Sequence record: MZ997841.1
DNA length: 46,142 bases
Direction: 5' to 3' (one strand)
From: Escherichia phage ULINTec7
Below are positions 3,612 to 35,900 of the stretch, piece by piece (position 1 is the stretch's first letter; each line of letters begins with the position of its first letter). The notes below the pieces were generated by a model. That model ran no database searches, was not told the DNA's origin, and saw nothing but the letters and a program-made list of their open reading frames with translations. Made by a program: the position numbers and the translations under genes.

Positions 3612-6239
3612 ATGCAAGACCTACACGCTATTCAACTTCAACTTGAAGAAGAAATGTTTAACGGCGGTATCCGTCGCTTTGAAGCGGACCAACAACGCCA
3701 GATTGCATCCGGTAATGAATCAGACACGGCATGGAATCGCCGCTTATTGTCCGAGTTAATCGCGCCAATGGCTGAAGGTATTCAGGCATACAAGGAAGAG
3801 TATGAAGGTAAAAGAGGCCGTGCACCACGTGCATTAGCTTTCATTAACTGCGTAGGGAATGAAGTAGCAGCATATATCACCATGAAAATCGTTATGGATA
3901 TGCTGAATACAGACGTTACCTTACAAGCCATCGCTATGAATGTAGCCGACCGAATCGAGGACCAAGTACGTTTTAGCAAGCTGGAAGGTCACGCAGCTAA
4001 GTACTTTGAGAAAGTGAAGAAGTCGCTTAAGGCTAGCAAGACTAAATCTTATCGTCATGCGCACAACGTAGCGGTAGTAGCTGAGAAGTCTGTTGCTGAC
4101 CGTGACGCGGATTTCTCCCGTTGGGAGGCATGGCCTAAAGACACCTTGTTGCAAATAGGCATGACCTTGCTAGAAATCTTGGAGAATAGCGTATTCTTCA
4201 ATGGTCAACCTGTCTTCCTTCGTACCTTGCGCACTAACGGCGGAAAGCATGGTGTTTACTATTTACAGACCAGTGAACATGTTGGCGAGTGGATAACTGC
4301 ATTTAAGGAACATGTAGCGCAGCTCAGCCCTGCCTATGCACCTTGCGTTATACCTCCCCGCCCTTGGGTATCACCTTTTAACGGCGGTTTCCACACTGAG
4401 AAAGTAGCAAGCCGTATTCGTCTGGTAAAAGGAAACCGCGAACACGTCCGCAAGCTGACCAAAAAGCAAATGCCAGCGGTTTACAAGGCTGTTAACGCTT
4501 TGCAGGCGACTAAGTGGCAGGTTAATAAAGAAGTTTTGCAGGTAGTAGAGGACGTTATCCGTCTCGACCTTGGTTATGGTGTACCTTCCTTTAAACCACT
4601 CATCGACCGCGAAAACAAACCAGCTAATCCGGTGCCGCTAGAATTTCAGCACCTGCGAGGCCGTGAACTGAAAGAGATGCTAACGCCGGAACAGTGGCAA
4701 TCCTTCATTAACTGGAAAGGTGAATGCACCAAGCTGTACACCGCAGAAACTAAGCGTGGCAGCAAGTCGGCGGCTACGGTCCGCATGGTTGGTCAGGCCC
4801 GTAAATATAGCCAGTTCGACGCAATCTACTTCGTGTATGCACTGGACAGCCGCAGCCGTGTATATGCGCAATCTAGCACGCTCTCACCGCAATCAAACGA
4901 CTTAGGCAAGGCACTCCTACGGTTTACCGAAGGGCAGCGCCTTGATAGCTCTGAGGCGCTTAAATGGTTTTTGGTGAACGGGGCTAATAACTGGGGTTGG
5001 GATAAGAAAACTTTCGACGTGCGCACCGCTAACGTGTTAGATGGTGAATTCCAAGACATGTGCCGCGACATTGCAGCGGATCCTCTGACCTTCACTCAAT
5101 GGGTAAATGCCGACTCCCCTTACGGCTTCCTTGCTTGGTGCTTTGAATATGCGCGTTATCTGGATGCACTGGATGAAGGCACGCAAGACCAATTCATGAC
5201 GCACCTCCCAGTCCATCAAGATGGTAGTTGTTCTGGTATCCAGCACTACAGTGCTATGCTACGCGATGCAGTAGGTGCGAAAGCGGTAAACCTTAAGCCC
5301 TCTGACTCCCCTCAAGATATTTATGGTGCCGTTGCGCAGGTAGTAATTCAGAAGAATTATGCATACATGAATGCAGAGGATGCGGAAACCTTCACTTCTG
5401 GCAGCGTGACTTTAACAGGTGCAGAACTTCGTAGCATGGCTAGTGCGTGGGATATGATAGGAATCACTCGCGGCCTGACCAAAAAGCCTGTAATGACACT
5501 ACCTTATGGCAGCACACGTCTAACCTGCCGTGAATCAGTGATTGATTATATCGTTGATTTGGAAGAAAAAGAGGCCCAACGGGCTATTGCGGAAGGGCGT
5601 ACCGCCAATCCTGTACATCCTTTTGATAATGACCGCAAAGACAGCCTGACACCTAGCGCAGCTTATAACTATATGACAGCTTTAATCTGGCCTTCTATTT
5701 CGGAAGTGGTTAAAGCTCCTATAGTGGCAATGAAAATGATTCGTCAGCTTGCACGTTTCGCAGCTAAAAGAAACGAAGGCTTAGAATATCCCTTACCAAC
5801 TGGCTTCATCTTGCAACAAAAGATAATGGCTACCGATATGCTCCGCGTATCCACTTGCTTGATGGGTGAAATCAAGATGAGTCTCCAGATTGAAACAGAT
5901 GTAGTTGATGAAACGGCAATGATGGGTGCGGCTGCTCCTAACTTCGTCCATGGTCACGATGCTAGCCACCTGATTCTGACTGTATGTGACCTAGTGGATA
6001 AAGGTATTACATCCATTGCAGTCATCCATGATTCTTTCGGTACTCATGCAGGACGTACCGCAGACCTGCGGGATAGCTTAAGGGAAGAAATGGTTAAGAT
6101 GTATCAAAACCATAATGCCCTGCAAAACCTGCTAGATGTGCACGAAGAGCGTTGGTTAGTAGACACCGGAATCCAAGTACCAGAGCAAGGAGAGTTTGAC
6201 CTTAACGAAATCTTAGTTTCAGACTATTGTTTCGCATAA
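3612..6239 (+). CDS. Single-subunit DNA-dependent RNA polymerase (T7/SP6 type)
   Basis: 875 aa with [16 protein letters not shown] and [13 protein letters not shown] motifs matching the T7 RNAP catalytic region. Confidence 0.97.
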
Positions 6240-6522: not shown

Positions 6523-6547
6523 CGTATTTACCGGACAGTATAGATAA
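6523..6547 (+). promoter_or_regulatory. Phage-promoter-like sequence (degenerate: ACAGTATAGATAAG)
   Basis: GTATTTACCGGACAGTATAGATAAG differs from the consensus in the conserved CACTATAGAAG core. Confidence 0.35.
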
Positions 6548-18287: not shown

Positions 18288-18682
18288 AATCATCGGAGGT
18301 AGCAGCTTATAAGAGGGAATTGCTAGAGAAGCAAGGATGGAAGTGCCCACTATGTGGCGGCAGTCTCAAGGCTGTTACTCCTATAAACCGTGTACTTGAC
18401 CATGACCATGAGACAGGATTCTGCCGTGCTGTTGTATGCCGAGGCTGCAATGGTGCAGAAGGAAAGATTAAGGGTGTTATCTCTGGTTACGGTAAGGCTG
18501 GTAACAACCGTTACTTCCAGCTTCAATGGTTAGAGCGGCTATATGAATACTGGAAGTTACATAGTACGCCTCAGACAGATAAGTTATATCACAAACACCA
18601 AACGGAGGCAGAGAAGCGCGAGGCTAAGAACCGTAAGGCACGCCTTGCTTATGCAAGAAAGAAGGAGGTTAAAGTTGGGTAA
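18272..18682 (+). CDS. Endonuclease VII-type Holliday junction resolvase
   Basis: CPLCGG...LDHDHETG...CRGCNGAEGKIKG resembles T4 endo VII (CLICQ...LDHDHEL...CNLCNAAEGQMKH). Confidence 0.8.
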   Translation: MVSKLKSSEVAAYKRELLEKQGWKCPLCGGSLKAVTPINRVLDHDHETGFCRAVVCRGCNGAEGKIKGVISGYGKAGNNRYFQLQWLERLYEYWKLHSTPQTDKLYHKHQTEAEKREAKNRKARLAYARKKEVKVG

Positions 18683-19682
18683 GCTTCGCAGCTTGTACAA
18701 AGACTCCGAGGTACTTGATGCAATTGAGCAAGCTACCGACGAGAAAGGTAATGTTAATTACAATGAGATGGCACGTGTATTATCGTGTCACCCTGTGGGT
18801 AAGAAGATTACCCGCCAGTTGGCTCGATACTGGCATGGTCAATTCAAGAAGACCAAGAAGAATGGTGATTATTACCAGACCCTTCTGCAAGAAGATAAGC
18901 GTATCAAAGAAGAGCGTAAGCTCAGGACTCCTGACCGCTACGAGGATTTGGCTATTGTACCATTGCCTGACTCGCCTCATCGAAGTGTACTGGTAATCCC
19001 TGATACTCATGCACCTTATGAGCATCCAGATACCTTAGAGTTCCTTGCAGCAGTCGCGGCACGTTACCGTCCAGATACAGTGGTTCACTTAGGAGATGAG
19101 GCAGATAAACACGCCCTCTCCTTCCATGACTCTGACCCGAATCTGGATAGTGCTGGCATGGAGCTAGAGAAGGCTCGTGTCTTCATGCACAAGTTGCACA
19201 AGATGTTCCCTGTGATGCGCCTGTGTCATTCTAATCACGGCTCTATGCACTTCCGTAAGGCAAGCGCCAAGGGTATTCCAGTGCAATATCTTCGCACCTA
19301 CCGTGAAGTCTTCTTCCCAAATGGAGGTGGCGACCAGTGGGATTGGCAGCATACACATGTTCTTGAGTTGCCGAATGGCGAACAAGTGGCATTCAAGCAT
19401 CAACCTGCTGGCTCTGTCCTAGCAGATGCAGCGCATGAGCGTATGAACCTTGTGTGTGGTCACTTGCACGGTAAGATGTCTGTGGAGTACGCACGTAATA
19501 CACATGAACAGTATTGGGCTGTGCAAGGTGGCTGCTTAATTGATGAGTCGTCCCGTGCATTTGCCTATGGGCGTGAGTCTAAATACAAGCCAGCATTAGG
19601 TTGTGTGGTTATTCTGGAGGGTGTACCTCATATTGTCCCGATGCAAACCAATAGCGACAACCGTTGGATTGGCAAGATTTAG
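18675..19682 (+). CDS. Calcineurin-like metallophosphoesterase
   Basis: Motifs VIPDTHAPYEH, HLGDEAD, SNHG and CGHLHG. Proposed TTG start at 18675 with GAAGGAGG 6 nt upstream; the ORF track extends to 18543, overlapping the endo VII gene. Confidence 0.6.
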   Translation: MGKLRSLYKDSEVLDAIEQATDEKGNVNYNEMARVLSCHPVGKKITRQLARYWHGQFKKTKKNGDYYQTLLQEDKRIKEERKLRTPDRYEDLAIVPLPDSPHRSVLVIPDTHAPYEHPDTLEFLAAVAARYRPDTVVHLGDEADKHALSFHDSDPNLDSAGMELEKARVFMHKLHKMFPVMRLCHSNHGSMHFRKASAKGIPVQYLRTYREVFFPNGGGDQWDWQHTHVLELPNGEQVAFKHQPAGSVLADAAHERMNLVCGHLHGKMSVEYARNTHEQYWAVQGGCLIDESSRAFAYGRESKYKPALGCVVILEGVPHIVPMQTNSDNRWIGKI

Positions 19683-19700
19683 TTGACACTATAGAACAAA
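19677..19700 (+). promoter_or_regulatory. Phage-RNAP promoter (variant)
   Basis: ATTTAGTTGACACTATAGAACAAA. Confidence 0.6.
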
Positions 19701-19782
19701 GGGCTAGGTAAGACTTTATCGGCTGGCGTATTCAAATGATATTGCACTAGCCCTTGATTGTATAGTGAATGGAGGATTCAAT

Positions 19783-20286
19783 ATGTCACACTATGAATGT
19801 AAGAAGTGTCATAAGCGTTATGATTACTGTACTTGTGGTCAAGAGAAAACATCTTTTAAAGTTGGAGACAAGGTATTTCGTAATGAAAAAGATTCTATTC
19901 CTTGGAATCAATACTGCAAAGAAGCTGGTATTGACCCTGATAGCCCTGTAACCATAGATGATATTGATGGCATTAACTTGTGCTTTCGTGAGGTGAGGGG
20001 TACAGGTTGGGATTCCAAAAAATTCAAACTTGCATCTGATAAGTTAGACAACAATATGGTAACTCAGCCTAAGCACTACGAGTTCTTTGATGGCGTAGAA
20101 GCAATTACTATCATCGCCCGTAGTATGACCGAGAAGCAATTCGCGGGGTATTGCATGGGTAATGCTTTGAAGTATCGTCTGCGTGCAGGTAAGAAGTTCA
20201 ATACTGAAGAAGACCTGAAGAAAGCAGACTACTACAAAGAGTTATTCCAGAAGCACCGTCACGAATGTATTGATGAGGATATTTGA
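19783..20286 (+). CDS. Hypothetical protein, DUF3310-like
   Basis: PKHYEFFDGVEAITIIARSMT...GNALKYRLRAGKK resembles the DUF3310 family from memory. Start at 19783 with GGAGGA SD. Confidence 0.45.
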   Translation: MSHYECKKCHKRYDYCTCGQEKTSFKVGDKVFRNEKDSIPWNQYCKEAGIDPDSPVTIDDIDGINLCFREVRGTGWDSKKFKLASDKLDNNMVTQPKHYEFFDGVEAITIIARSMTEKQFAGYCMGNALKYRLRAGKKFNTEEDLKKADYYKELFQKHRHECIDEDI

Positions 20287-20287
20287 T

Positions 20288-21235
20288 ATGAATATCTTTG
20301 AGTTCCTAGGTCTTCCAGAAGACCACCGCAATCACCCATTCATGCTGGTGAAGCATCGCGGTGAAGTTCCTGAGAAGAAATTAACTTTTCCATGTTATGC
20401 ACAGGTGAAACGAGATGGTATCTTTTCTGCTGTTGTTGTTCGCACTGATGGTATCGTTGGCATTTTTGGTCGCACTGGTAAGAAATTGGCAAACACTGAA
20501 GGACTCGAACAAGCCTTTGCTACCTTTCCGGTTGGCATTTATCTTGGTGAGCTTCAGTCTATGGCCATTGATATCTACCTTGAGGCAATCTCTGGGGTTG
20601 TGAACCCCAATCGCACTGAGCCACTTGATTTCATAGGCCAGCAGATTAAAGACAACCTGTATATCGACTTCTTCGATATGTTAACTATTAAGGCATTCCA
20701 TGATGGATTCACTGATGTTTCTTATCTCAAACGTTACGATGCTTTACATCGTCGTATCGGCGCTCATCTTAGCGGGTGCAACGCTATCCTTCCTATCACT
20801 CCTTGCCATAATGAGCGAGAAGTTGAAGCGTTTGCGCAAGAGCAAATAGATGCAGGACGTGAGGGTGCTGTATTCAAACTAGACTGCGATTATGAAGCAG
20901 GACACAAAGGTTATCGTCAGACTAAAGAAGTCCGTAAGGTAACCTATGACCTTACTTGTATTGGCTTTGAAGAAGGTAAAGGCAAATACAAAGGTAAGGT
21001 AGCTAACCTCATTTTCAAATGGAAAGGAGGCAAGACAATCAAAGCTATGTTAGGTAAGGGGTGGACTCATGCAGATGCAGAACAGATGTTCCACGACATT
21101 AAACATGGTGGACGATTGAATGTCATTGGTAAAATCTTTGAAGTCAAAGGTCTTCAGGATTCAAGCAAGGGCAACATTCGTCTGCCCAAAGCGGGAGAAT
21201 TAAGACATGACAAAGATGAACCAGATTTCTTTTGA
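20288..21235 (+). CDS. ATP-dependent DNA ligase
   Basis: Candidate adenylation motif I K-x-D-G-I at QVKRDGIFS; size and position fit a phage ligase. Start at 20288 follows the upstream stop. Confidence 0.7.
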   Translation: MNIFEFLGLPEDHRNHPFMLVKHRGEVPEKKLTFPCYAQVKRDGIFSAVVVRTDGIVGIFGRTGKKLANTEGLEQAFATFPVGIYLGELQSMAIDIYLEAISGVVNPNRTEPLDFIGQQIKDNLYIDFFDMLTIKAFHDGFTDVSYLKRYDALHRRIGAHLSGCNAILPITPCHNEREVEAFAQEQIDAGREGAVFKLDCDYEAGHKGYRQTKEVRKVTYDLTCIGFEEGKGKYKGKVANLIFKWKGGKTIKAMLGKGWTHADAEQMFHDIKHGGRLNVIGKIFEVKGLQDSSKGNIRLPKAGELRHDKDEPDFF

Positions 21236-21422
21236 TAGCATGAAGGCAACTCGTGCAGTTGAGGTAGCAGAAGCTATCTTCGAAACTTTATCCTGTGGCA
21301 TGGAAGTGCCATATACTTTACTTGCTGATGCAGAAGAACTTGGTCTTTCTGTAGAAGCTATCCAAGAGAAGGTTGACGAATTATATGGTACAGACGAAGA
21401 AGAAACCGACGATTTCATTTGA
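21207..21422 (+). CDS. Hypothetical acidic protein (71 aa)
   Basis: ORF overlapping the ligase 3' end. Confidence 0.4.
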   Translation: MTKMNQISFDSMKATRAVEVAEAIFETLSCGMEVPYTLLADAEELGLSVEAIQEKVDELYGTDEEETDDFI

Positions 21423-21426
21423 AGGA

Positions 21427-21555
21427 ATGGAGATGCTTGAGATGATTCTCAAGCCTTCTTCTCCGAAGGTGACTAAGACTCATGAAGAGTTAATCGTTGA
21501 TGAAGTGAAGCGTTACATCATGGATTGTGTCAGAGCACAACTGGTGGTCCAATGA
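21427..21555 (+). CDS. Hypothetical small protein (42 aa)
   Basis: GAAGGA SD before the ATG at 21427; weak call. Confidence 0.25.
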   Translation: MEMLEMILKPSSPKVTKTHEELIVDEVKRYIMDCVRAQLVVQ

Positions 21556-22013
21556 TACGTCCAGCTTCCTTCCTAGATATTCCTGAGATTATAAACCTTG
21601 GGAATAAATATGTGGAAGAGGAAGTCAAGGTAGTGGCCCATCACTCAGCCTCATGGAATGCAGAACAAAGCGCACATAACCTTTGCGCATCTCTTAGTAG
21701 AGAAGATTTATTCCTATGGGTTGCTGTAGATGAAGGGCGGATTGTAGGGTTCCTGTGGGCTGGCTATCACGAGTTGGCCCCTTGGACACCTGTAAGGGTT
21801 GCCTCTGACATTCTCTTTTATATTATACCAGAGAAGCGAGGAACCCTACTTGGTATGCGTCTCATCAAAGCCCTAAAGCAATGGGCTAGTGATAATGAAT
21901 GCTCTGAGGTTCGCCTGTCTATCGCCTCTGGTATTAATGAAGAACGTGTCGGACGTATGTATAAGCGACTTGGCTTTGAACCGTTTGGCACTGTGTACAA
22001 CCTGAAGTTCTAA
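21552..22013 (+). CDS. GNAT-family N-acetyltransferase
   Basis: Fold-like pattern ...ILFYIIPEKRGTLLGMRLIKALKQWA...EVRLSI...ERVGRMYKRLGFEP. Confidence 0.55.
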   Translation: MIRPASFLDIPEIINLGNKYVEEEVKVVAHHSASWNAEQSAHNLCASLSREDLFLWVAVDEGRIVGFLWAGYHELAPWTPVRVASDILFYIIPEKRGTLLGMRLIKALKQWASDNECSEVRLSIASGINEERVGRMYKRLGFEPFGTVYNLKF

Positions 22014-22022
22014 GGAGATAAC

Positions 22023-22232
22023 ATGGGTGTTGTAAAGAAAGCATTTAAGGCTATCGGTCTTGCTCAAGATGCACCACGTATTGAAGCCAAAGTCCCAGCA
22101 CAGCAGCTTGAGCGTAAGCCTGAAACTGAAGCTGAAGATATTCAAATTGGTGCAGGTGGTGATGATGCGACTGCATCTGCAAAAGGTAAGCGCGGCCTTG
22201 TCCGTCCGGTAGCTTCTAGCTTGAAGGTGTAA
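22023..22232 (+). CDS. Hypothetical protein (69 aa), possibly a virion protein
   Basis: ORF with AGGAG SD immediately upstream of the portal gene. Confidence 0.45.
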   Translation: MGVVKKAFKAIGLAQDAPRIEAKVPAQQLERKPETEAEDIQIGAGGDDATASAKGKRGLVRPVASSLKV

Positions 22233-22233
22233 T

Positions 22234-23784
22234 ATGAAACAGAGCACAGATTTGGAGTATGGAGGTAAGCGGTCTAAGATACCTAAGCTATGGGAGAAGT
22301 TCTCCACTAAACGTAGCTCTTTCCTTGATAGGGCGAAGCATTACTCCAAATTAACCTTGCCCTATCTGATGAATGACAAAGGTGATAACGAGACTTCGCA
22401 GAATGGATGGCAAGGTGTAGGTGCTCAGGCAACTAATCATCTAGCCAACAAGCTAGCGCAAGTACTATTTCCTGCACAGCGTGCCTTCTTCCGTGTAGAC
22501 TTAACTGCACAAGGTGAGAAGGTTCTTAATCAGCGTGGCCTGAAGAAGACAGAGCTAGCTACCATCTTCGCTCAAGTGGAAACACGGGCAATGAAAGAGT
22601 TAGAGCAACGTCAATTCCGGCCTGCTGTAGTGGAAGCATTCAAGCATCTTATTGTTGCTGGTAGCTGTATGCTATACAAGCCGAGCAAAGGTGCAATCAG
22701 TGCTATCCCAATGCATCACTATGTAGTTAACCGTGATACCAATGGCGACCTGTTAGACATTATCTTACTGCAAGAGAAAGACTTACGCACCTTTGACCCA
22801 GCTACACGTGCTGTAGTAGAGGTTGGCCTGAAAGGTAAGAAGTGCAAGGAAGATGACAGCGTTAAGCTGTACACACATGCTAAGTATCTTGGTGATGGAT
22901 TTTGGGAACTCAAGCAATCTGCTGATGATATCCCTGTGGGTAAGGTGAGTAAAATCAAATCAGAAAAGCTACCCTTCATCCCATTAACTTGGAAGCGAAG
23001 CTATGGTGAGGATTGGGGTCGCCCTCTTGCAGAGGATTACTCCGGTGATTTATTCGTTATCCAATTCTTATCTGAAGCGGTTGCCCGTGGTGCTGCGCTG
23101 ATGGCAGATATCAAGTACCTGATTCGTCCGGGTGCTCAAACTGATGTTGACCACTTTGTTAACTCTGGCACTGGTGAGGTTGTCACTGGTGTAGAAGAAG
23201 ACATCCATATTGTACAGTTAGGTAAGTACGCAGACCTCACACCTATTAGCGCGGTTCTAGAGGTATACACTCGCCGTATCGGTGTTGTCTTCATGATGGA
23301 GACAATGACACGCCGTGACGCCGAACGTGTTACTGCTGTAGAAATCCAGCGAGATGCGTTAGAGATTGAGCAGAACATGGGTGGTGTATACTCCCTCTTT
23401 GCTACTACTATGCAATCGCCAGTAGCGATGTGGGGTCTGCTGGAGGCAGGGGAGTCCTTCACTAGTGACTTAGTGGACCCTGTGATTATCACAGGTATTG
23501 AAGCTTTAGGACGCATGGCTGAGTTGGATAAACTGGCTAACTTTGCTCAGTATATGTCACTGCCATTACAATGGCCTGAGCCTGTCCTAGCTGCTGTGAA
23601 ATGGCCTGACTATATGGATTGGGTGCGTGGTCAAATCTCTGCTGAACTGCCGTTCCTTAAATCGGCTGAAGAGATGGCACAAGAACAGGAAGCACAGATG
23701 CAAGCACAGCAAGCACAGATGCTTGAAGAAGGTGTGGCTAAGGCCGTGCCGGGTGTAATTCAACAAGAACTTAAGGAGGCGTAA
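22234..23784 (+). CDS. Portal (head-tail connector) protein
   Basis: 516 aa, placed before scaffold and capsid as T7 gp8 is; size consistent. Confidence 0.8.
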   Translation: MKQSTDLEYGGKRSKIPKLWEKFSTKRSSFLDRAKHYSKLTLPYLMNDKGDNETSQNGWQGVGAQATNHLANKLAQVLFPAQRAFFRVDLTAQGEKVLNQRGLKKTELATIFAQVETRAMKELEQRQFRPAVVEAFKHLIVAGSCMLYKPSKGAISAIPMHHYVVNRDTNGDLLDIILLQEKDLRTFDPATRAVVEVGLKGKKCKEDDSVKLYTHAKYLGDGFWELKQSADDIPVGKVSKIKSEKLPFIPLTWKRSYGEDWGRPLAEDYSGDLFVIQFLSEAVARGAALMADIKYLIRPGAQTDVDHFVNSGTGEVVTGVEEDIHIVQLGKYADLTPISAVLEVYTRRIGVVFMMETMTRRDAERVTAVEIQRDALEIEQNMGGVYSLFATTMQSPVAMWGLLEAGESFTSDLVDPVIITGIEALGRMAELDKLANFAQYMSLPLQWPEPVLAAVKWPDYMDWVRGQISAELPFLKSAEEMAQEQEAQMQAQQAQMLEEGVAKAVPGVIQQELKEA

Positions 23785-24704
23785 TGTCTTTCTCATTTAC
23801 TGAACCGTCAACCACTCACCCTACTGCTGAAGAGGGTCCGGTAGAAACCAAGGAGGTAACAACTGATGCTGCTACTACTGATGCTCCTGCTGACGCTGGC
23901 ACTGCTGTACAAGATGACAATGCTGGTGCACAACCTACTGAAGACACCGGAGGAGAAGCTTCTGGACAGCCTTCAGAAAAAGGAGACAATGGCGGAGAGA
24001 ATGGTGAACCTAAGCCAGATGATACCGCGACCGACACTGAGGAAGTGCAATACTTCTTCGGAGAACATGAAGTAACAGTAGACATCCCACAGGATGTAAC
24101 TGACAGCCTTAAAGAGAAAGGCATTGATGCCAAGCAGGTTGCCAAGGAACTCTATTCCAAAGGTGGCAAGTTTGAACTGTCAGATGCAACCAAGCAGAAA
24201 TTGTATGATGCTTTTGGCAAGTTTGCGGTAGATGCTTACCTGTCAGGTCTTAAGGCTCAAAATGAAGCCTTCTTCCTGAAAGAAGCCAACGTAGCTAAAG
24301 AGTTGGAAGCAGCTAACACCCAACGCTTCTCTGATGTTTCTAAGGAAATTGGTGGCGAAGAAGGTTGGTCCCGTCTTGAGGCATGGGCGCTTGAAGCGCT
24401 GTCCGATGATGAACTAACGGCATTCAATGCGGTGATGGAATCTGGCAATCAGTACCTCCAGCAGTACGCTGTGCGTGAACTGGAGAGCCGCCGTAAGGCT
24501 GCACAGGGTGATGACAAGCCAAACTTGATTGAACCATCTGCACCTGCTGCTGCATCTGAAGATAACGGCCCTCTCTCTCGTGAGCAATATCTGCGTGAGA
24601 TGATGACCCTTAGCTCTCGCTTCGGTACAGACAAGAAAGCTGCTGCTGAGTATCAGGCTAAGCTGGATGCTCGACGCCGTGCGGGTATGGCTCGCGGACT
24701 TTAA
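23784..24704 (+). CDS. Capsid assembly scaffolding protein
   Basis: 306 aa, acidic and low-complexity N-terminus, between portal and capsid. Confidence 0.7.
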   Translation: MSFSFTEPSTTHPTAEEGPVETKEVTTDAATTDAPADAGTAVQDDNAGAQPTEDTGGEASGQPSEKGDNGGENGEPKPDDTATDTEEVQYFFGEHEVTVDIPQDVTDSLKEKGIDAKQVAKELYSKGGKFELSDATKQKLYDAFGKFAVDAYLSGLKAQNEAFFLKEANVAKELEAANTQRFSDVSKEIGGEEGWSRLEAWALEALSDDELTAFNAVMESGNQYLQQYAVRELESRRKAAQGDDKPNLIEPSAPAAASEDNGPLSREQYLREMMTLSSRFGTDKKAAAEYQAKLDARRRAGMARGL

Positions 24705-24708
24705 TCAG

Positions 24709-24733
24709 TATTTACTGGACACTATAGAAGGGA
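24709..24733 (+). promoter_or_regulatory. Phage-RNAP promoter upstream of the capsid gene
   Basis: TATTTACTGGACACTATAGAAGGG. Confidence 0.8.
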
Positions 24734-25986: not shown

Positions 25987-25994
25987 TACCTATG

Positions 25995-26028
25995 CCCTAT
26001 CTACCCTGCGTAGGTAGGGTTCTTTTTG
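25995..26028 (+). terminator. Intrinsic-type terminator after the capsid gene
   Basis: 10-bp stem (25995-26004 pairing with 26010-26019), 5-nt loop, then TTCTTTTTGTT. Confidence 0.7.
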
Positions 26029-32914: not shown

Positions 32915-35900
32915 ATGGAACAAGATATTAATACTAATTGGGCTGGTTATGTCCAGTCTACTCCTGAGCCGTTTTCTATTGAGGCGGCTCCGGTATCGGC
33001 TCCTACGATACGCCAGCGTAATGAGCTACAAGAGCAAGTCCTTGAAGCTAAAGCAGACGCGGATATCATAGGTGCTGTAGGTGCTGCCTTCCAGAATGAG
33101 TGGTTGGCATTCGGAGGTAAGAGATGGTATGACCGTGCCACTGCTGACTTCACACCTCAACCTGATTTTGAAATCCAACCAGAGCAACGTGAAGCTCTTC
33201 GCTTCAAATACGGAACGGATATGATGCAGACAATCACTGAGGGTGTTCGTTCTGAGGATGAATTAAACTTCCGTATTCAGAATGCTGATGAAGATCTTGA
33301 GCGCAATAAGCGCATTGCTCAGGCTGGCTGGGCTGGTTCTGTGGCAACTATTGGCGCTGCTGTGCTTGACCCTGTAGGCTGGGTTGCCTCTATACCAACT
33401 GGCGGTGCAGCTAAAGTTGGCCTTGTAGGCCGTGCTGTGCGTGGCGCTATTGCCGCTGGCGTGAGTAACGCCGCTATTGAATCCGTGTTAGTCCAAGGTG
33501 ACATGACCCGTGATTTAGATGACATTATGGTAGCACTAGGCTCAGGTATGGCTATGGGTGGTGTTATCGGCGCTGTGGCGCGTGGCAGGGCCGCCAAACT
33601 CAGCGACCAAGGGGATGACAGGGCTGCGAGCGTTGTGCGAAGTGCAGACGCAGGTGATCGGTATATCCGTGCTGTTGCGGATGACAGTATAGGTGCGATG
33701 CGCGTTAAGGGCGAGGAGGTGCTTACTGAGGGCGCATTTGATATATCTAGTAAAGGCGAAGACTTGCTGAAAACATTGCAGAGGGAAGGAAACTCTATTG
33801 ATATGGCCCCTCGCCGCTGGGCCGGAACTCTGTCTGCCCTTGGTACTGTCGTACATTCCTCTCAGGATGCAAGTGTACGCGGTCTTGGTGCTCGTCTGTT
33901 TGAGTCCCCGCAAGGCTTAGGTGCACAGAAGGCATCGGCTAGTCTCATGCAGAATACTAACTTGAACCGTCTGAAATCTGCTGATATGAATCGTTTCAAC
34001 GATGGGTTCGATTTATGGCTCAAAGAGAATAATATCAATCCGGTTGCAGGTCATACTAACTCTCACTATGTGCAGCAATATAATGAGAAGGTATGGGAGG
34101 CTGTACGCATCGGTATGAATGAGTCTACGCCTAAGTCTATCCGTATGGCAGCAGAGGGGCAGCAAGCTATGTATCGTGAAGCCTTAGCATTACGTCAACG
34201 CTCTGGTGAAGCTGGGTTTGAAAAGGTTAAAGCAGATGATAAGTACATGCCTGATATTTTTGACAGTATGAAGGCTCGTCGTCAATTCGGTATGCACGAT
34301 AAAGAGGACATCATTGAGCTATTCTCTCGTGCATACCAGAATGGTTCTCGTAAGGTTCCAAAGGAAGTGGCTGATGATATTGCACGTGCACAAGTAAACC
34401 GTGTTGTGGATGCCACCCTGACAGGACGTATGAGTTTCGAAAAAGCTATGTCTGGTCAGACTAAGGCAGAATATGAAGCAATAATGCGCAAGGCAGGCTT
34501 CAGTGATGAAGAAATTGAAAAGATGGTAGAAGCTCTGGATAATAAAGAAACCAGAGATAATATCTCTAACCGAGCTAAGATGAGTTTAGGCTTAGATGTT
34601 ACTCAAGAATACAATGGCATTCGTATGCGTGACTTTATGAATACTAACGTGGAAGAGTTAACAGATAACTACATGAAGGAAGCGGCAGGTGGTGCTGCCT
34701 TGGCTCGTCAAGGTTTCTCTACCTATCAGGCTGCACTTAATGCAATTGACCTTGTAGAGCGAAATGCACGAAATGCAACTAAAGATACAAAAGCACACGC
34801 ACAATTTGAAGCGGAGTCTGCTAATATTCGTCAATCAGAACCTGATTACAAGAAGGCACAAGAGAAGATTGAAGAGTTAAAGAAGAGACTTAAATTGAAA
34901 GAGAAAGATGAAGCAGCAGGTCTGGCTATTGATGAAGAAATCCGTCAAATGCGAGAAGGTCTTCGCCTAATTATGGGTAAATCTATTGATGCGGACCCAC
35001 AGGCTTTGTCTACTAAAATGCTGCGTCGTGGTCGTGACATTACAGGTGTACTTCGCTTAGGTCAGATGGGCTTCGCACAGCTAGGTGAACTTGCTAACTT
35101 CATGGGTGAGTTTGGTATTGCTGCAACCACTATAGCTTTAGGTAAGCAATTCCGCTTTACATCTAAAGCTTTGCGGAGCGGGGATGGCTTCTTCCGAGAT
35201 AAGAACTTGGCAGAAGTAGAGAGGATGGTAGGTTACATTGGTGAGGATAACTGGATAACAACCAAGGGTGCACGTCCAGATGAGTTTGGTGATGTAACCA
35301 CAGTAAGAGGGATGATGGCTCACTTTGACCAATCCATGAACTCAATACGTCGTGCTCAGACCAACCTATCGCTCTTCCGCATGGCACAGGGTTCTCTGGA
35401 GCGAATGACTAATAGGCAAATAGCCTTGTCTTTCATTGACCACCTTGAAGGCAAGAAGATTATTCCTCAGAAGAAACTGGAGGAACTTGGTCTTACTCAG
35501 GGGTTCATGACTAACCTACAGAAGCACTATGATGCTAACTCTAAGGGTTCTGGCTTGCTTGGATTTGATACAATGCCTTATGCCATGGGTGAAACTTTAG
35601 CTAATGCTATTCGTCGTAAGTCAGGTCTAATTATCCAACGTAACTTCATTGGTGATGAAGGGATCTGGATGAACAAAGCGCTTGGTAAAACTTTTGCACA
35701 GCTTAAGTCTTTCTCTTTGGTATCTGGTGAGAAGCAATTTGGTCGAGGTATTCGCCACGATAAGATTGGTCTTGCTAAGAAGACAGCCTATGGGTTTGCT
35801 TTAGGTTCCATAGTATATGCAGCGAAAGCTTATGTGAACTCTATTGGACGAGAAGACCAAGATGAATATCTGGAAGAGAAACTATCCCCTAAAGGGTTGG

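Follow-up and report, generated by a model that had tools for sequence, protein, structure and literature searches.

To our knowledge, no phage GNAT other than Rac (gp28 of phage LUZ19) has been shown to turn host transcription off. Rac acts in Pseudomonas hosts, and its expression alone is toxic and leads to cleavage of the linker of the P. aeruginosa RNA polymerase alpha subunit (PMC7552054). This action requires the predicted acetyl-CoA pocket and is accompanied by raised cellular lysine acetylation; Rac itself is not a protease (PMC7552054). In that study, conservation of Rac was considered within Krylovirinae and Pantoea phage LIMEzero only, and a homolog from LKA1 causes no cleavage, which makes the phenotype genus-specific within Krylovirinae (PMC7552054). 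A second precedent is AcrVA5, a GNAT of mobile elements that, as cited in PMC7552054, inactivates Cas12a by acetylation.

Here, we analyze a GNAT gene of Escherichia phage ULINTec7 (MZ997841.1) within a window of 46,142 nt, the whole stretch of DNA, numbered from its first nucleotide. The 1.1 kb around the gene are 99.5% identical to Escherichia phage ULINTec6 and 96–99% identical to many Vectrevirus genomes (K1E, K1-5, AAPEc6, VEc3). Judged by these identities, the stretch is a Vectrevirus (K1E/K1-5-like) of the Autographiviridae, subfamily Molineuxvirinae.

The acetyltransferase gene and its transcription unit

The gene encodes a protein of 153 residues. All homologs begin with MIR(P/Q), and the start ATG shares the four nucleotides ATGA with the TGA stop of the preceding small ORF, so we place the start at ATG 21552. 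The upstream TTG at 21525 (162 residues) is ruled out by the same MIR starts and the same coupling of ATG and stop codon. The protein exceeds the gathering thresholds of three GNAT models of the Pfam clan Acetyltrans: Acetyltransf_1 (PF00583; 38.9 bits, cut-off 20.7, E 1.2e-9), Acetyltransf_7 (PF13508; 36.3 bits, cut-off 27) and Acetyltransf_10 (PF13673; 25.6 bits, cut-off 23.6). PHROG 1249, ‘acetyltransferase’, matches residues 1–151 with an E-value of 1.1e-53. That the product of 21552–22013 belongs to the GNAT superfamily is essentially certain. The initial annotation had proposed a GNAT acetyltransferase here, to be given up if profile searches found no GNAT fold; the Pfam and PHROG profiles both find one, and profile, fold and conservation evidence bears the proposal out.

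The protein has both the full-length profile and the syntenic position of the PHROG 1249 family, that of SP6 gp28 and K1E gp27. The corresponding order (ligase, then GNAT, small ORF and portal) is seen in K1-5, SP6, Era103, phi-A318 and uligo. A protein of Escherichia phage VEc3 annotated ‘acetyltransferase’ is 100% identical to the window protein, while K1E gp27 (96% identity) and SP6 gp28 (76%) have the same neighbours and the same length. By identity and gene order, SP6 gp28, K1E gp27 and K1-5 gp27 are the same gene as the one in the window, which is already known under the annotation ‘acetyltransferase’ in VEc3, K1E, K1-5 and SP6 (PHROG 1249). The literature searched gave neither functional data on SP6 gp28, K1-5 gp27 and K1E gp27 nor experimental characterization of these homologs. 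The dN/dS of the gene is 0.13 against SP6 and 0.095 against K1-5; values of about 0.1 indicate that strong purifying selection is acting on it.

Around the GNAT, the genes follow the order known from the records of K1-5 and SP6: metallophosphoesterase, a 173-residue protein, ATP-dependent ligase, two small ORFs, acetyltransferase, a small ORF, portal, scaffold and major capsid. The features of this interval are as follows.

19675–19698, + strand: promoter of the phage RNA polymerase, AGATTTAGTTGACACTATAGAACA; the closest one ahead of the GNAT gene
20288–21235, + strand: ATP-dependent DNA ligase; annotated as ligase in ULINTec6, KMB14 and K1E
21207–21422, + strand: small ORF of 71 residues, K1-5 gp25-like (phrog_5860, E 2.4e-41)
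21385–21555, + strand: small ORF of about 56 residues, K1-5 gp26-like (phrog_6507, E 2.7e-37); its TGA overlaps the GNAT ATG
21552–22013, + strand: GNAT N-acetyltransferase of 153 residues, ATG start and TAA stop, from the ORF list, profiles, structure model and dN/dS
22023–22232, + strand: 69-residue homolog of T7 gp7.3 (phrog_1320, E 1.9e-11; phrog_9033, E 1.1e-12)
22234–23784, + strand: portal (head–tail connector), from the ORF list and annotated relatives
23784–24704, + strand: scaffolding protein, the last gene of the interval between the two promoters
24708–24731, + strand: next phage promoter, ahead of the major capsid gene

The mechanical ORF of the ligase opens at TTG 20270, and its start at 20288 is taken from the length of K1-5 gene 24 (948 nt). 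The phrog_6507 match begins at residue 5 of a 60-residue mechanical ORF. A strong Shine–Dalgarno sequence, AAGGAG, precedes the 69-residue ORF, and T7 gp7.3 itself falls in phrog_1320 (E 9.7e-30). gp7.3 is a virion protein that helps nozzle assembly onto the adaptor (PMC11784390). The location claimed in the initial annotation, between the ligase and the structural module, stands in outline; two small ORFs intervene on the ligase side, and the gp7.3-like ORF comes before the portal. The gene sits at the boundary of DNA-metabolism and morphogenesis genes.

The sequence CACTATAG occurs 13 times against 2.0 expected. A consensus, ATTTACTGGACACTATAGAAGA, is common to 11 promoter sites on the + strand, and from 19698 to 24708 there is no further one. 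A strong terminator-like hairpin is present only at 25994–26020, after the capsid gene, while sigma-70-like and terminator-like matches within the GNAT gene occur at background frequency. Because the promoter at 19675 is followed by no strong terminator before 25994, the GNAT gene shares one phage-polymerase transcript with ligase, small ORFs, portal and scaffold. Its place on this transcript, in the company of the ligase, gp7.3-like, portal and scaffold genes, would put the appearance of the protein in middle-to-late infection.

Predicted fold, cofactor site and substrate class

An AlphaFold2 model of the 153-residue protein, built on 26 homologs, has a mean pLDDT of 89.1. Its topology, b1-a1-a2-b2-b3-b4-a3-b5-a4-b6-b7, is that of a complete GNAT core in the right order. 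Foldseek returns 623 matches in the PDB at E ≤ 0.001; the best 50 of these 623 are all GNAT enzymes, with query TM-scores of about 0.57–0.79. Two elements of the cofactor side can be placed on the sequence.

21816–21863, + strand: ‘motif A’, the b4–a3 putative acetyl-CoA pyrophosphate loop, residues 89–104, FYIIPEKRGTLLGMRL, from alignments
21918–21977, + strand: ‘motif B’, b5–a4, residues 123–142, SIASGINEERVGRMYKRLGF, from alignments and the model

In this loop, R96 and G97 are invariant among the 26 close homologs, and the loop aligns to PEyRGqGiG of human SSAT2. Across 149 distant family members, R96 is retained in 98% and G97 in 89%, and position 101 keeps G or A. The loop reads R96-G97-T-L-L-G101 against a canonical R/Q-x-x-G-x-G/A, the central glycine being replaced by L, M, V or other residues. 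The contacts with acetyl-CoA come from backbone amides; the loop would therefore likely bind acetyl-CoA. In the b5–a4 element, S123, S126, G127 and I128 are invariant among the 26 close homologs, and the pattern S-G-I-N-E...Y-x-x-L-G-F is conserved. G127 and G141 are conserved in at least 82% of the 149 distant members, and G127, G141 and G146 are conserved across these relatives, as are R96 and G97. The model shows a helix at residues 130–139. Y137, where the general acid usually sits, is F in some homologs. Altogether, 29 alignment columns are invariant among the 26 close relatives. The cofactor side of the protein looks functional from this pattern of conservation.

The identity of the substrate is less readily approached by similarity. 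The NCBIfam models for RimI, AAC(6'), ArsN1 and MshD score 17–28 bits against cut-offs of 86–320, and no subfamily is reached. RimI (TIGR01575, ribosomal protein S18 alanine N-acetyltransferase) scores 22.6 bits against 86.4, AAC(6') aminoglycoside 6'-N-acetyltransferase at best 24.2 against 140, and ArsN1/phosphinothricin N-acetyltransferase 27.5 against 170 and 23.9 against 210; MshD and SSAT likewise fall far under their cut-offs. Among PADLOC defence and GNAT toxin models, the sole match is PDC-M11A (E 0.015, 12 bits), of which the protein is not a member. The initial annotation had called the target unknown, a fair description of a 153-residue protein that reaches no curated subfamily model.

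PDB sequence matches are weak and mixed (E 3e-5 to 0.4), and comprise a RimI-labelled Brucella protein, diamine, phosphinothricin, ArsN and DpA polyamine acetyltransferases, and AAC(6'). The Foldseek neighbours are the same mixture plus Naa60, and generic GNATs are what Foldseek finds in both the PDB and BFVD, which does not discriminate substrate class. The small cellular GNATs (BAR/ArsN, SSAT/SpeG/DpA, the RimI-annotated 4j3g and Naa60) have the same fold and predicted acetyl-CoA site architecture, but at query TM-scores of about 0.64–0.79 and identities of 15–23%. On the presumed substrate side, Y20, E24, H31, W69, W78, D86 and Y90 are invariant in the close family; conservation of the first six of these marks the phage proteins as a family of their own. 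Similarity to known GNATs cannot give a readout of substrate class.

These neighbours bear on whether the substrate is a small molecule. The enzyme could set polyamine levels while DNA is replicated and packaged, in the manner of SpeG, SSAT or DpA, or could detoxify an amino-acid analogue or aminoglycoside. Diamine acetyltransferases 1 and 2 (E 3e-4 to 1e-2) are among the best PDB sequence matches, beside the phosphinothricin, ArsN and DpA polyamine enzymes, Foldseek query TM-scores reach 0.79 for BAR and ArsN, the weak NCBIfam matches are to ArsN1 and AAC(6'), and a relative in phage Nerthus is annotated ‘aminoglycoside acetyltransferase’. Yet the matches, at 15–23% identity, amount to generic GNAT likeness, the curated subfamily models score 24–28 bits against cut-offs of 140–210, and a lytic phage with a very short cycle would gain little from antibiotic resistance. 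We consider a small-molecule substrate unlikely. It nonetheless counts against a protein target that the structural neighbours mix N-terminal, amino-acid-analogue, polyamine and aminoglycoside acetyltransferases, among which small molecules are possible substrates.

The slot upstream of gp7.3 and the portal

In annotated records from four Autographiviridae subfamilies, the same order is read: GNAT, a small gp7.3-like or structural protein, portal and scaffold.

Molineuxvirinae: K1-5, SP6, Era103
Colwellvirinae: phi-A318, uligo
Krylovirinae: LUZ19 (Rac), MR8, phi-2 (with an inserted HNH gene)
Studiervirinae, genus Ghunavirus: 17A, Henninger; the order is gp6.5, gp6.7, GNAT, gp7.3, portal

The window gene is the occupant of a conserved slot and no stray insert. 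In T3-like phages, gp6.7 is followed directly by gp7.3, with no gene in the slot (PMC4925675), and the slot gene is therefore dispensable; the initial annotation's description of an auxiliary enzyme, not obviously required for replication or assembly, is a fair one. Virion proteomics of phiPsa17 (Ghunavirus) detected gp6.7, gp7.3 and other structural proteins but not the ‘gp7’ GNAT (PMC4517105), an absence that argues for a non-structural slot protein.

Rac lies in this slot in LUZ19 (small ORF, GNAT, small virion protein, portal, scaffold), is of comparable length (157 versus 153 residues) and belongs to the GNAT superfamily. Like the Rac gene, the window gene immediately precedes the genes for a first small virion protein and the portal, the position of the Rac family. 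Aligned by hhalign, the window family (149 sequences) and the Rac family (five sequences) match with a probability of 96% and an E-value of 3.6e-9 over 130 columns; the Rac-family sequences were taken from phage records, and a word-indexed protein search gave one near-identical protein only. PHROG 1249 is the best foreign PHROG of Rac (E 4.9e-4, 20.9 bits), and a generic Pfam GNAT model scores Rac about as well (23 bits). BLASTP of the window protein against Rac finds no similarity (E 18), and phrog_3986, to which Rac belongs, does not match the window protein, a member of phrog_1249, at E ≤ 0.01. Rac also matches the Pfam GNAT model over the first 88 of its 116 positions only, and its C-terminal part, as the alignments suggest, resembles T7 gp7 and not the canonical b5–a4 element. 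The sequence comparison shows a likeness to Rac at superfamily level only. Because this likeness is no stronger than that of Rac to generic GNAT models, the link between the two proteins rests mainly on synteny.

Could the window protein nevertheless act as a functional ortholog of Rac, making the alpha subunit of E. coli RNA polymerase lose its C-terminal domain by proteolysis and so turning host transcription off? Slot and fold are common to both, the profile–profile probability is high, and SP6-like phages must also switch from the host polymerase to their own. The two proteins are in different PHROGs without pairwise similarity, however; the LKA1 homolog is inactive in cleavage even within Krylovirinae, and Rac has no effect in P. 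putida, a host-specific phenotype. We regard such an ortholog as very unlikely. The phenotype of Rac is narrow in genus and host, and we do not transfer cleavage to the window protein.

In T7, the slot belongs to gene 7, labelled ‘host range’ in the T7 record (133 residues, phrog_2746), which has gp6.7 on its upstream side and gp7.3 and then the portal on the other. The gene 7 protein has no Pfam domain. An AlphaFold2 model of a protein 98% identical to T7 gp7, built on 11 sequences, reaches a pLDDT of 90.6; its topology, b1-a1-a2-b2-b3-b4-a3-b5-b6, is that of a GNAT core lacking helix a4. The best 50 Foldseek matches of this model in the PDB are all GNAT enzymes, with E-values of 8e-6 to 1e-4 and query TM-scores of 0.5–0.7. 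Weak reciprocal PHROG matches connect gp7 to phrog_3986 (E 0.025) and Rac to phrog_2746 (E 0.012). By hhalign, the gp7 family is in register at b4–a3–b5 with both other families, at E 0.005 for that of Rac and E 0.008 for that of the window protein; neither match is significant, and tblastn with a Ghunavirus GNAT finds no T7-gp7-like proteins and thus no direct BLAST bridge. As the hhalign matches are not significant, the link of gp7 to the slot family rests on predicted structure and synteny only. No R-x-x-G-x-G/A cofactor loop is recognizable in T7 gp7, and gp7, a truncated GNAT fold in the model, is probably non-catalytic. In the literature searched, we found no account of T7 gp7 as a GNAT and no mechanism for gene 7.

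The constancy of these neighbours raises the question of a role in morphogenesis. The enzyme might acetylate a virion or ejection protein, for instance its gp7.3-like neighbour or some other component of tail or core, and so tune infectivity or host range. Adjacency to a gp7.3 homolog is invariant across the four subfamilies, the GNAT and gp7.3-like ORFs overlap in LUZ19, 17A, Henninger and MR8, and the window gene is co-transcribed with portal and scaffold. T7 gene 7, with its GNAT-fold model and ‘host range’ label, shares the slot, and homologs in SIO1 and YeP5 lie between very large ORFs of unknown function that are possibly structural. Autographiviridae gene order is generally conserved, however, and the adjacency may be inherited rather than functional. 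Rac, the sole characterized slot protein, targets host proteins (PMC7552054), and an acetylated virion protein is not reported in the literature searched. The cofactor loop also looks degenerate in the T7 gp7 and Rac families, which speaks against catalysis as their common role. On balance, we think a virion target improbable.

A broader reading takes the whole slot as one lineage. The window GNAT would then be the intact form of an ancestral gene that was already in place ahead of gp7.3 and the portal when the Autographiviridae had yet to diverge into subfamilies, and LUZ19 Rac and T7 gene 7 would be its diverged, partly degenerate descendants. All would have one job, to modify or escort a protein at the junction of DNA metabolism and virion assembly. 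We consider this doubtful; if true, it would account for the phenotype of T7 gene 7, which could then be tested in a homolog with its catalytic site intact.

Distribution and a possible role in infection

Searched by tblastn, the window protein matches 248 phage records, among them podophages of Escherichia, Salmonella, Klebsiella, Proteus, Pectobacterium, Erwinia, Vibrio, Aeromonas, Marinomonas and Pseudomonas syringae. More distant copies occur in Roseobacter phage SIO1 and Yersinia phage YeP5. At identities of at least 60%, the GNAT is found in 136 phage records and the portal in 146, which makes the GNAT nearly a core gene within the SP6-like clade. A profile run against 1.84 billion representative proteins yields 1,259 clusters at E ≤ 1e-10; the best 150 of these 1,259 are mostly about 150 residues long and matched over their full length. 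In longer metagenomic relatives (277–385 residues), Pfam shows GNAT domains alone and no fusion to another domain, with two GNAT stretches in three of them.

This distribution weighs on a possible role against host defence. Anti-defence genes are typically patchy and turn over fast. The GNAT gene, in contrast, holds a fixed position, is near-universal in phages of Escherichia, Salmonella, Klebsiella, Proteus, Erwinia, Vibrio and Pseudomonas, and has a low dN/dS. Acetylation of a host immune protein, as AcrVA5 is cited in PMC7552054 to do to Cas12a, has that precedent of a mobile-element GNAT modifying a host protein, and the slot gene is accessory and dispensable in some lineages. However, the PDB search gives no match to AcrVA5 or any other anti-defence structure; specific similarity between AcrVA5 and the window protein is not detectable, and the two differ in context and distribution. 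We give an anti-defence function little credence.

The reading that we favour, if tentatively and with somewhat more doubt than confidence, is that the window protein is an active acetyl-CoA-dependent protein acetyltransferase, absent from the virion, that acts in mid-to-late infection on one or a few host or phage proteins. It builds on the ORF, the fold, the conservation of the cofactor site, purifying selection, co-transcription and the conserved slot; acetyltransferase activity, a protein as substrate, and host takeover or infectivity tuning as the outcome are what we infer. Against it stand the replaced central glycine of the cofactor loop, F in place of Y137 in some homologs, the narrow effect of Rac and the missing slot gene of T3-like phages. 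The protein would be a small, catalytically competent, non-structural accessory protein of SP6-, K1E- and K1-5-like phages. Acetyl-CoA would be bound through the b4–a3 loop (R96-G97...G101) and the b5–a4 element. The enzyme would next pass the acetyl group straight to an amine, be it a lysine side chain or an N-terminus, on one protein or a few in the infected cell. The activity or stability of the target would be altered in the favour of the phage, in the general manner of LUZ19 Rac.

In itself, the gene matters little: it is annotated and widespread, and our analysis confirms the annotation. Of the occupants of the slot, which include Rac and T7 gene 7, its family is the most canonical and probably the catalytically active one. 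Whether these three have a common function makes the slot context a modestly interesting lead, and an easily handled K1 coliphage could reveal a target of phage-driven protein acetylation in E. coli. Among the close relatives, K1-5 gp27 has 22 extra residues inserted in frame after residue 29 and before residue 30, most of them a tandem duplication; the ULINTec7 copy is without them.

T7 gene 7 and the slot upstream of the portal

T7 gene 7, labelled 'host range', occupies the same genome slot as the window GNAT, an acetyltransferase-family ORF, and as Rac of LUZ19, just upstream of the gp7.3-like gene and the portal gene.

T7 locus 1631-2032 (NC_001604 19130-19531): T7 gene 7 ('host range')

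A GNAT-like fold without helix a4 is predicted for T7 gp7 (pLDDT 90.6), and the top 50 PDB fold matches of this model are all GNAT enzymes. Pfam assigns no domain to the protein, and we found no paper in the literature searched that describes such a fold for gp7.

Genes flanking the GNAT

Two small ORFs precede the GNAT and one follows it directly.

21207-21422 (+): small conserved ORF, no assigned function (phrog_5860)
21385-21555 (+): small conserved ORF, no assigned function (phrog_6507)
22023-22232 (+): 69-aa ORF directly 3′ of the GNAT (phrog_1320, E 1.9e-11; phrog_9033, E 1.1e-12)

The two upstream ORFs overlap by 38 nt in different frames, and the second, which contains the hairpin at 21435-21454, shares an ATGA overlap with the GNAT that couples their translation. 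The downstream ORF carries a strong ribosome-binding site (AAGGAG) and is a shortened homolog of T7 gp7.3, a tail and virion-assembly protein; its counterpart is named 'hypothetical protein' in most related records.

The K1-5 copy and distant relatives

Copies of the GNAT in K1-5 and in two more distant phages were located.

K1-5 locus 4353-4880: K1-5 gene 27 (GNAT copy)
SIO1 locus 2474-2935: SIO1 gp26.2, distant GNAT homolog (Zobellviridae phage)
YeP5 locus 2501-2947: YeP5 distant GNAT homolog (unclassified 35-kb podophage)

K1-5 gene 27 contains an in-frame insertion of 22 aa between residues 29 and 30, whereas the window and K1E GNATs do not. Within this insertion, HHSASWNAEQSA is repeated following a short scrambled stretch, so that most of the added sequence is a tandem duplication, located in the a1-a2 region. 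The SIO1 and YeP5 homologs are flanked by very large ORFs (~660-715 aa upstream and up to ~1,480 aa downstream) with the appearance of genes for virion or internal proteins, not of a ligase neighbourhood. Five metagenomic relatives (P0064, P0069, P0075, P0090 and P0097) are longer, at 277-385 aa; four of them contain two stretches matching the family profile, confirmed by Pfam as two GNAT stretches in three (P0069, P0075 and P0097), and no partner domain other than GNAT exceeds the Pfam cut-off in any of the five. The GNAT of PQ306468.1 ('Salmonella phage Phylax-28') is 99.3% identical to that of the Ghunavirus Pseudomonas phage 17A; Salmonella is an odd host label for a Ghunavirus.

Promoters and the metallophosphoesterase start

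The window contains a set of phage-polymerase promoters with the consensus ATTTACTGGACACTATAGAAGA.

6330, 6524, 9443, 10330, 14518, 15287, 16525, 19675, 24708, 37462, 39567, 41246 (all +): phage-polymerase promoters
18543-19682 (+): metallophosphoesterase mechanical ORF, 379 aa

The promoter at 6524 (+) reads CAGTATAG instead of CACTATAG, and a weaker site at 2387, also counted in the set, departs from the consensus at five positions. Two further matches to CACTATAG, at 35128 (+) and 5719 (-), are not preceded by the rest of the consensus and appear to be fortuitous. The metallophosphoesterase ORF spans 379 aa, compared with 335 aa in the K1-5 and SP6 annotations, and its additional 44 N-terminal residues (MNTGSYIVRLRQISYITNTKRRQRSARLRTV...) probably stem from an in-frame ATG that lies upstream of the true start.
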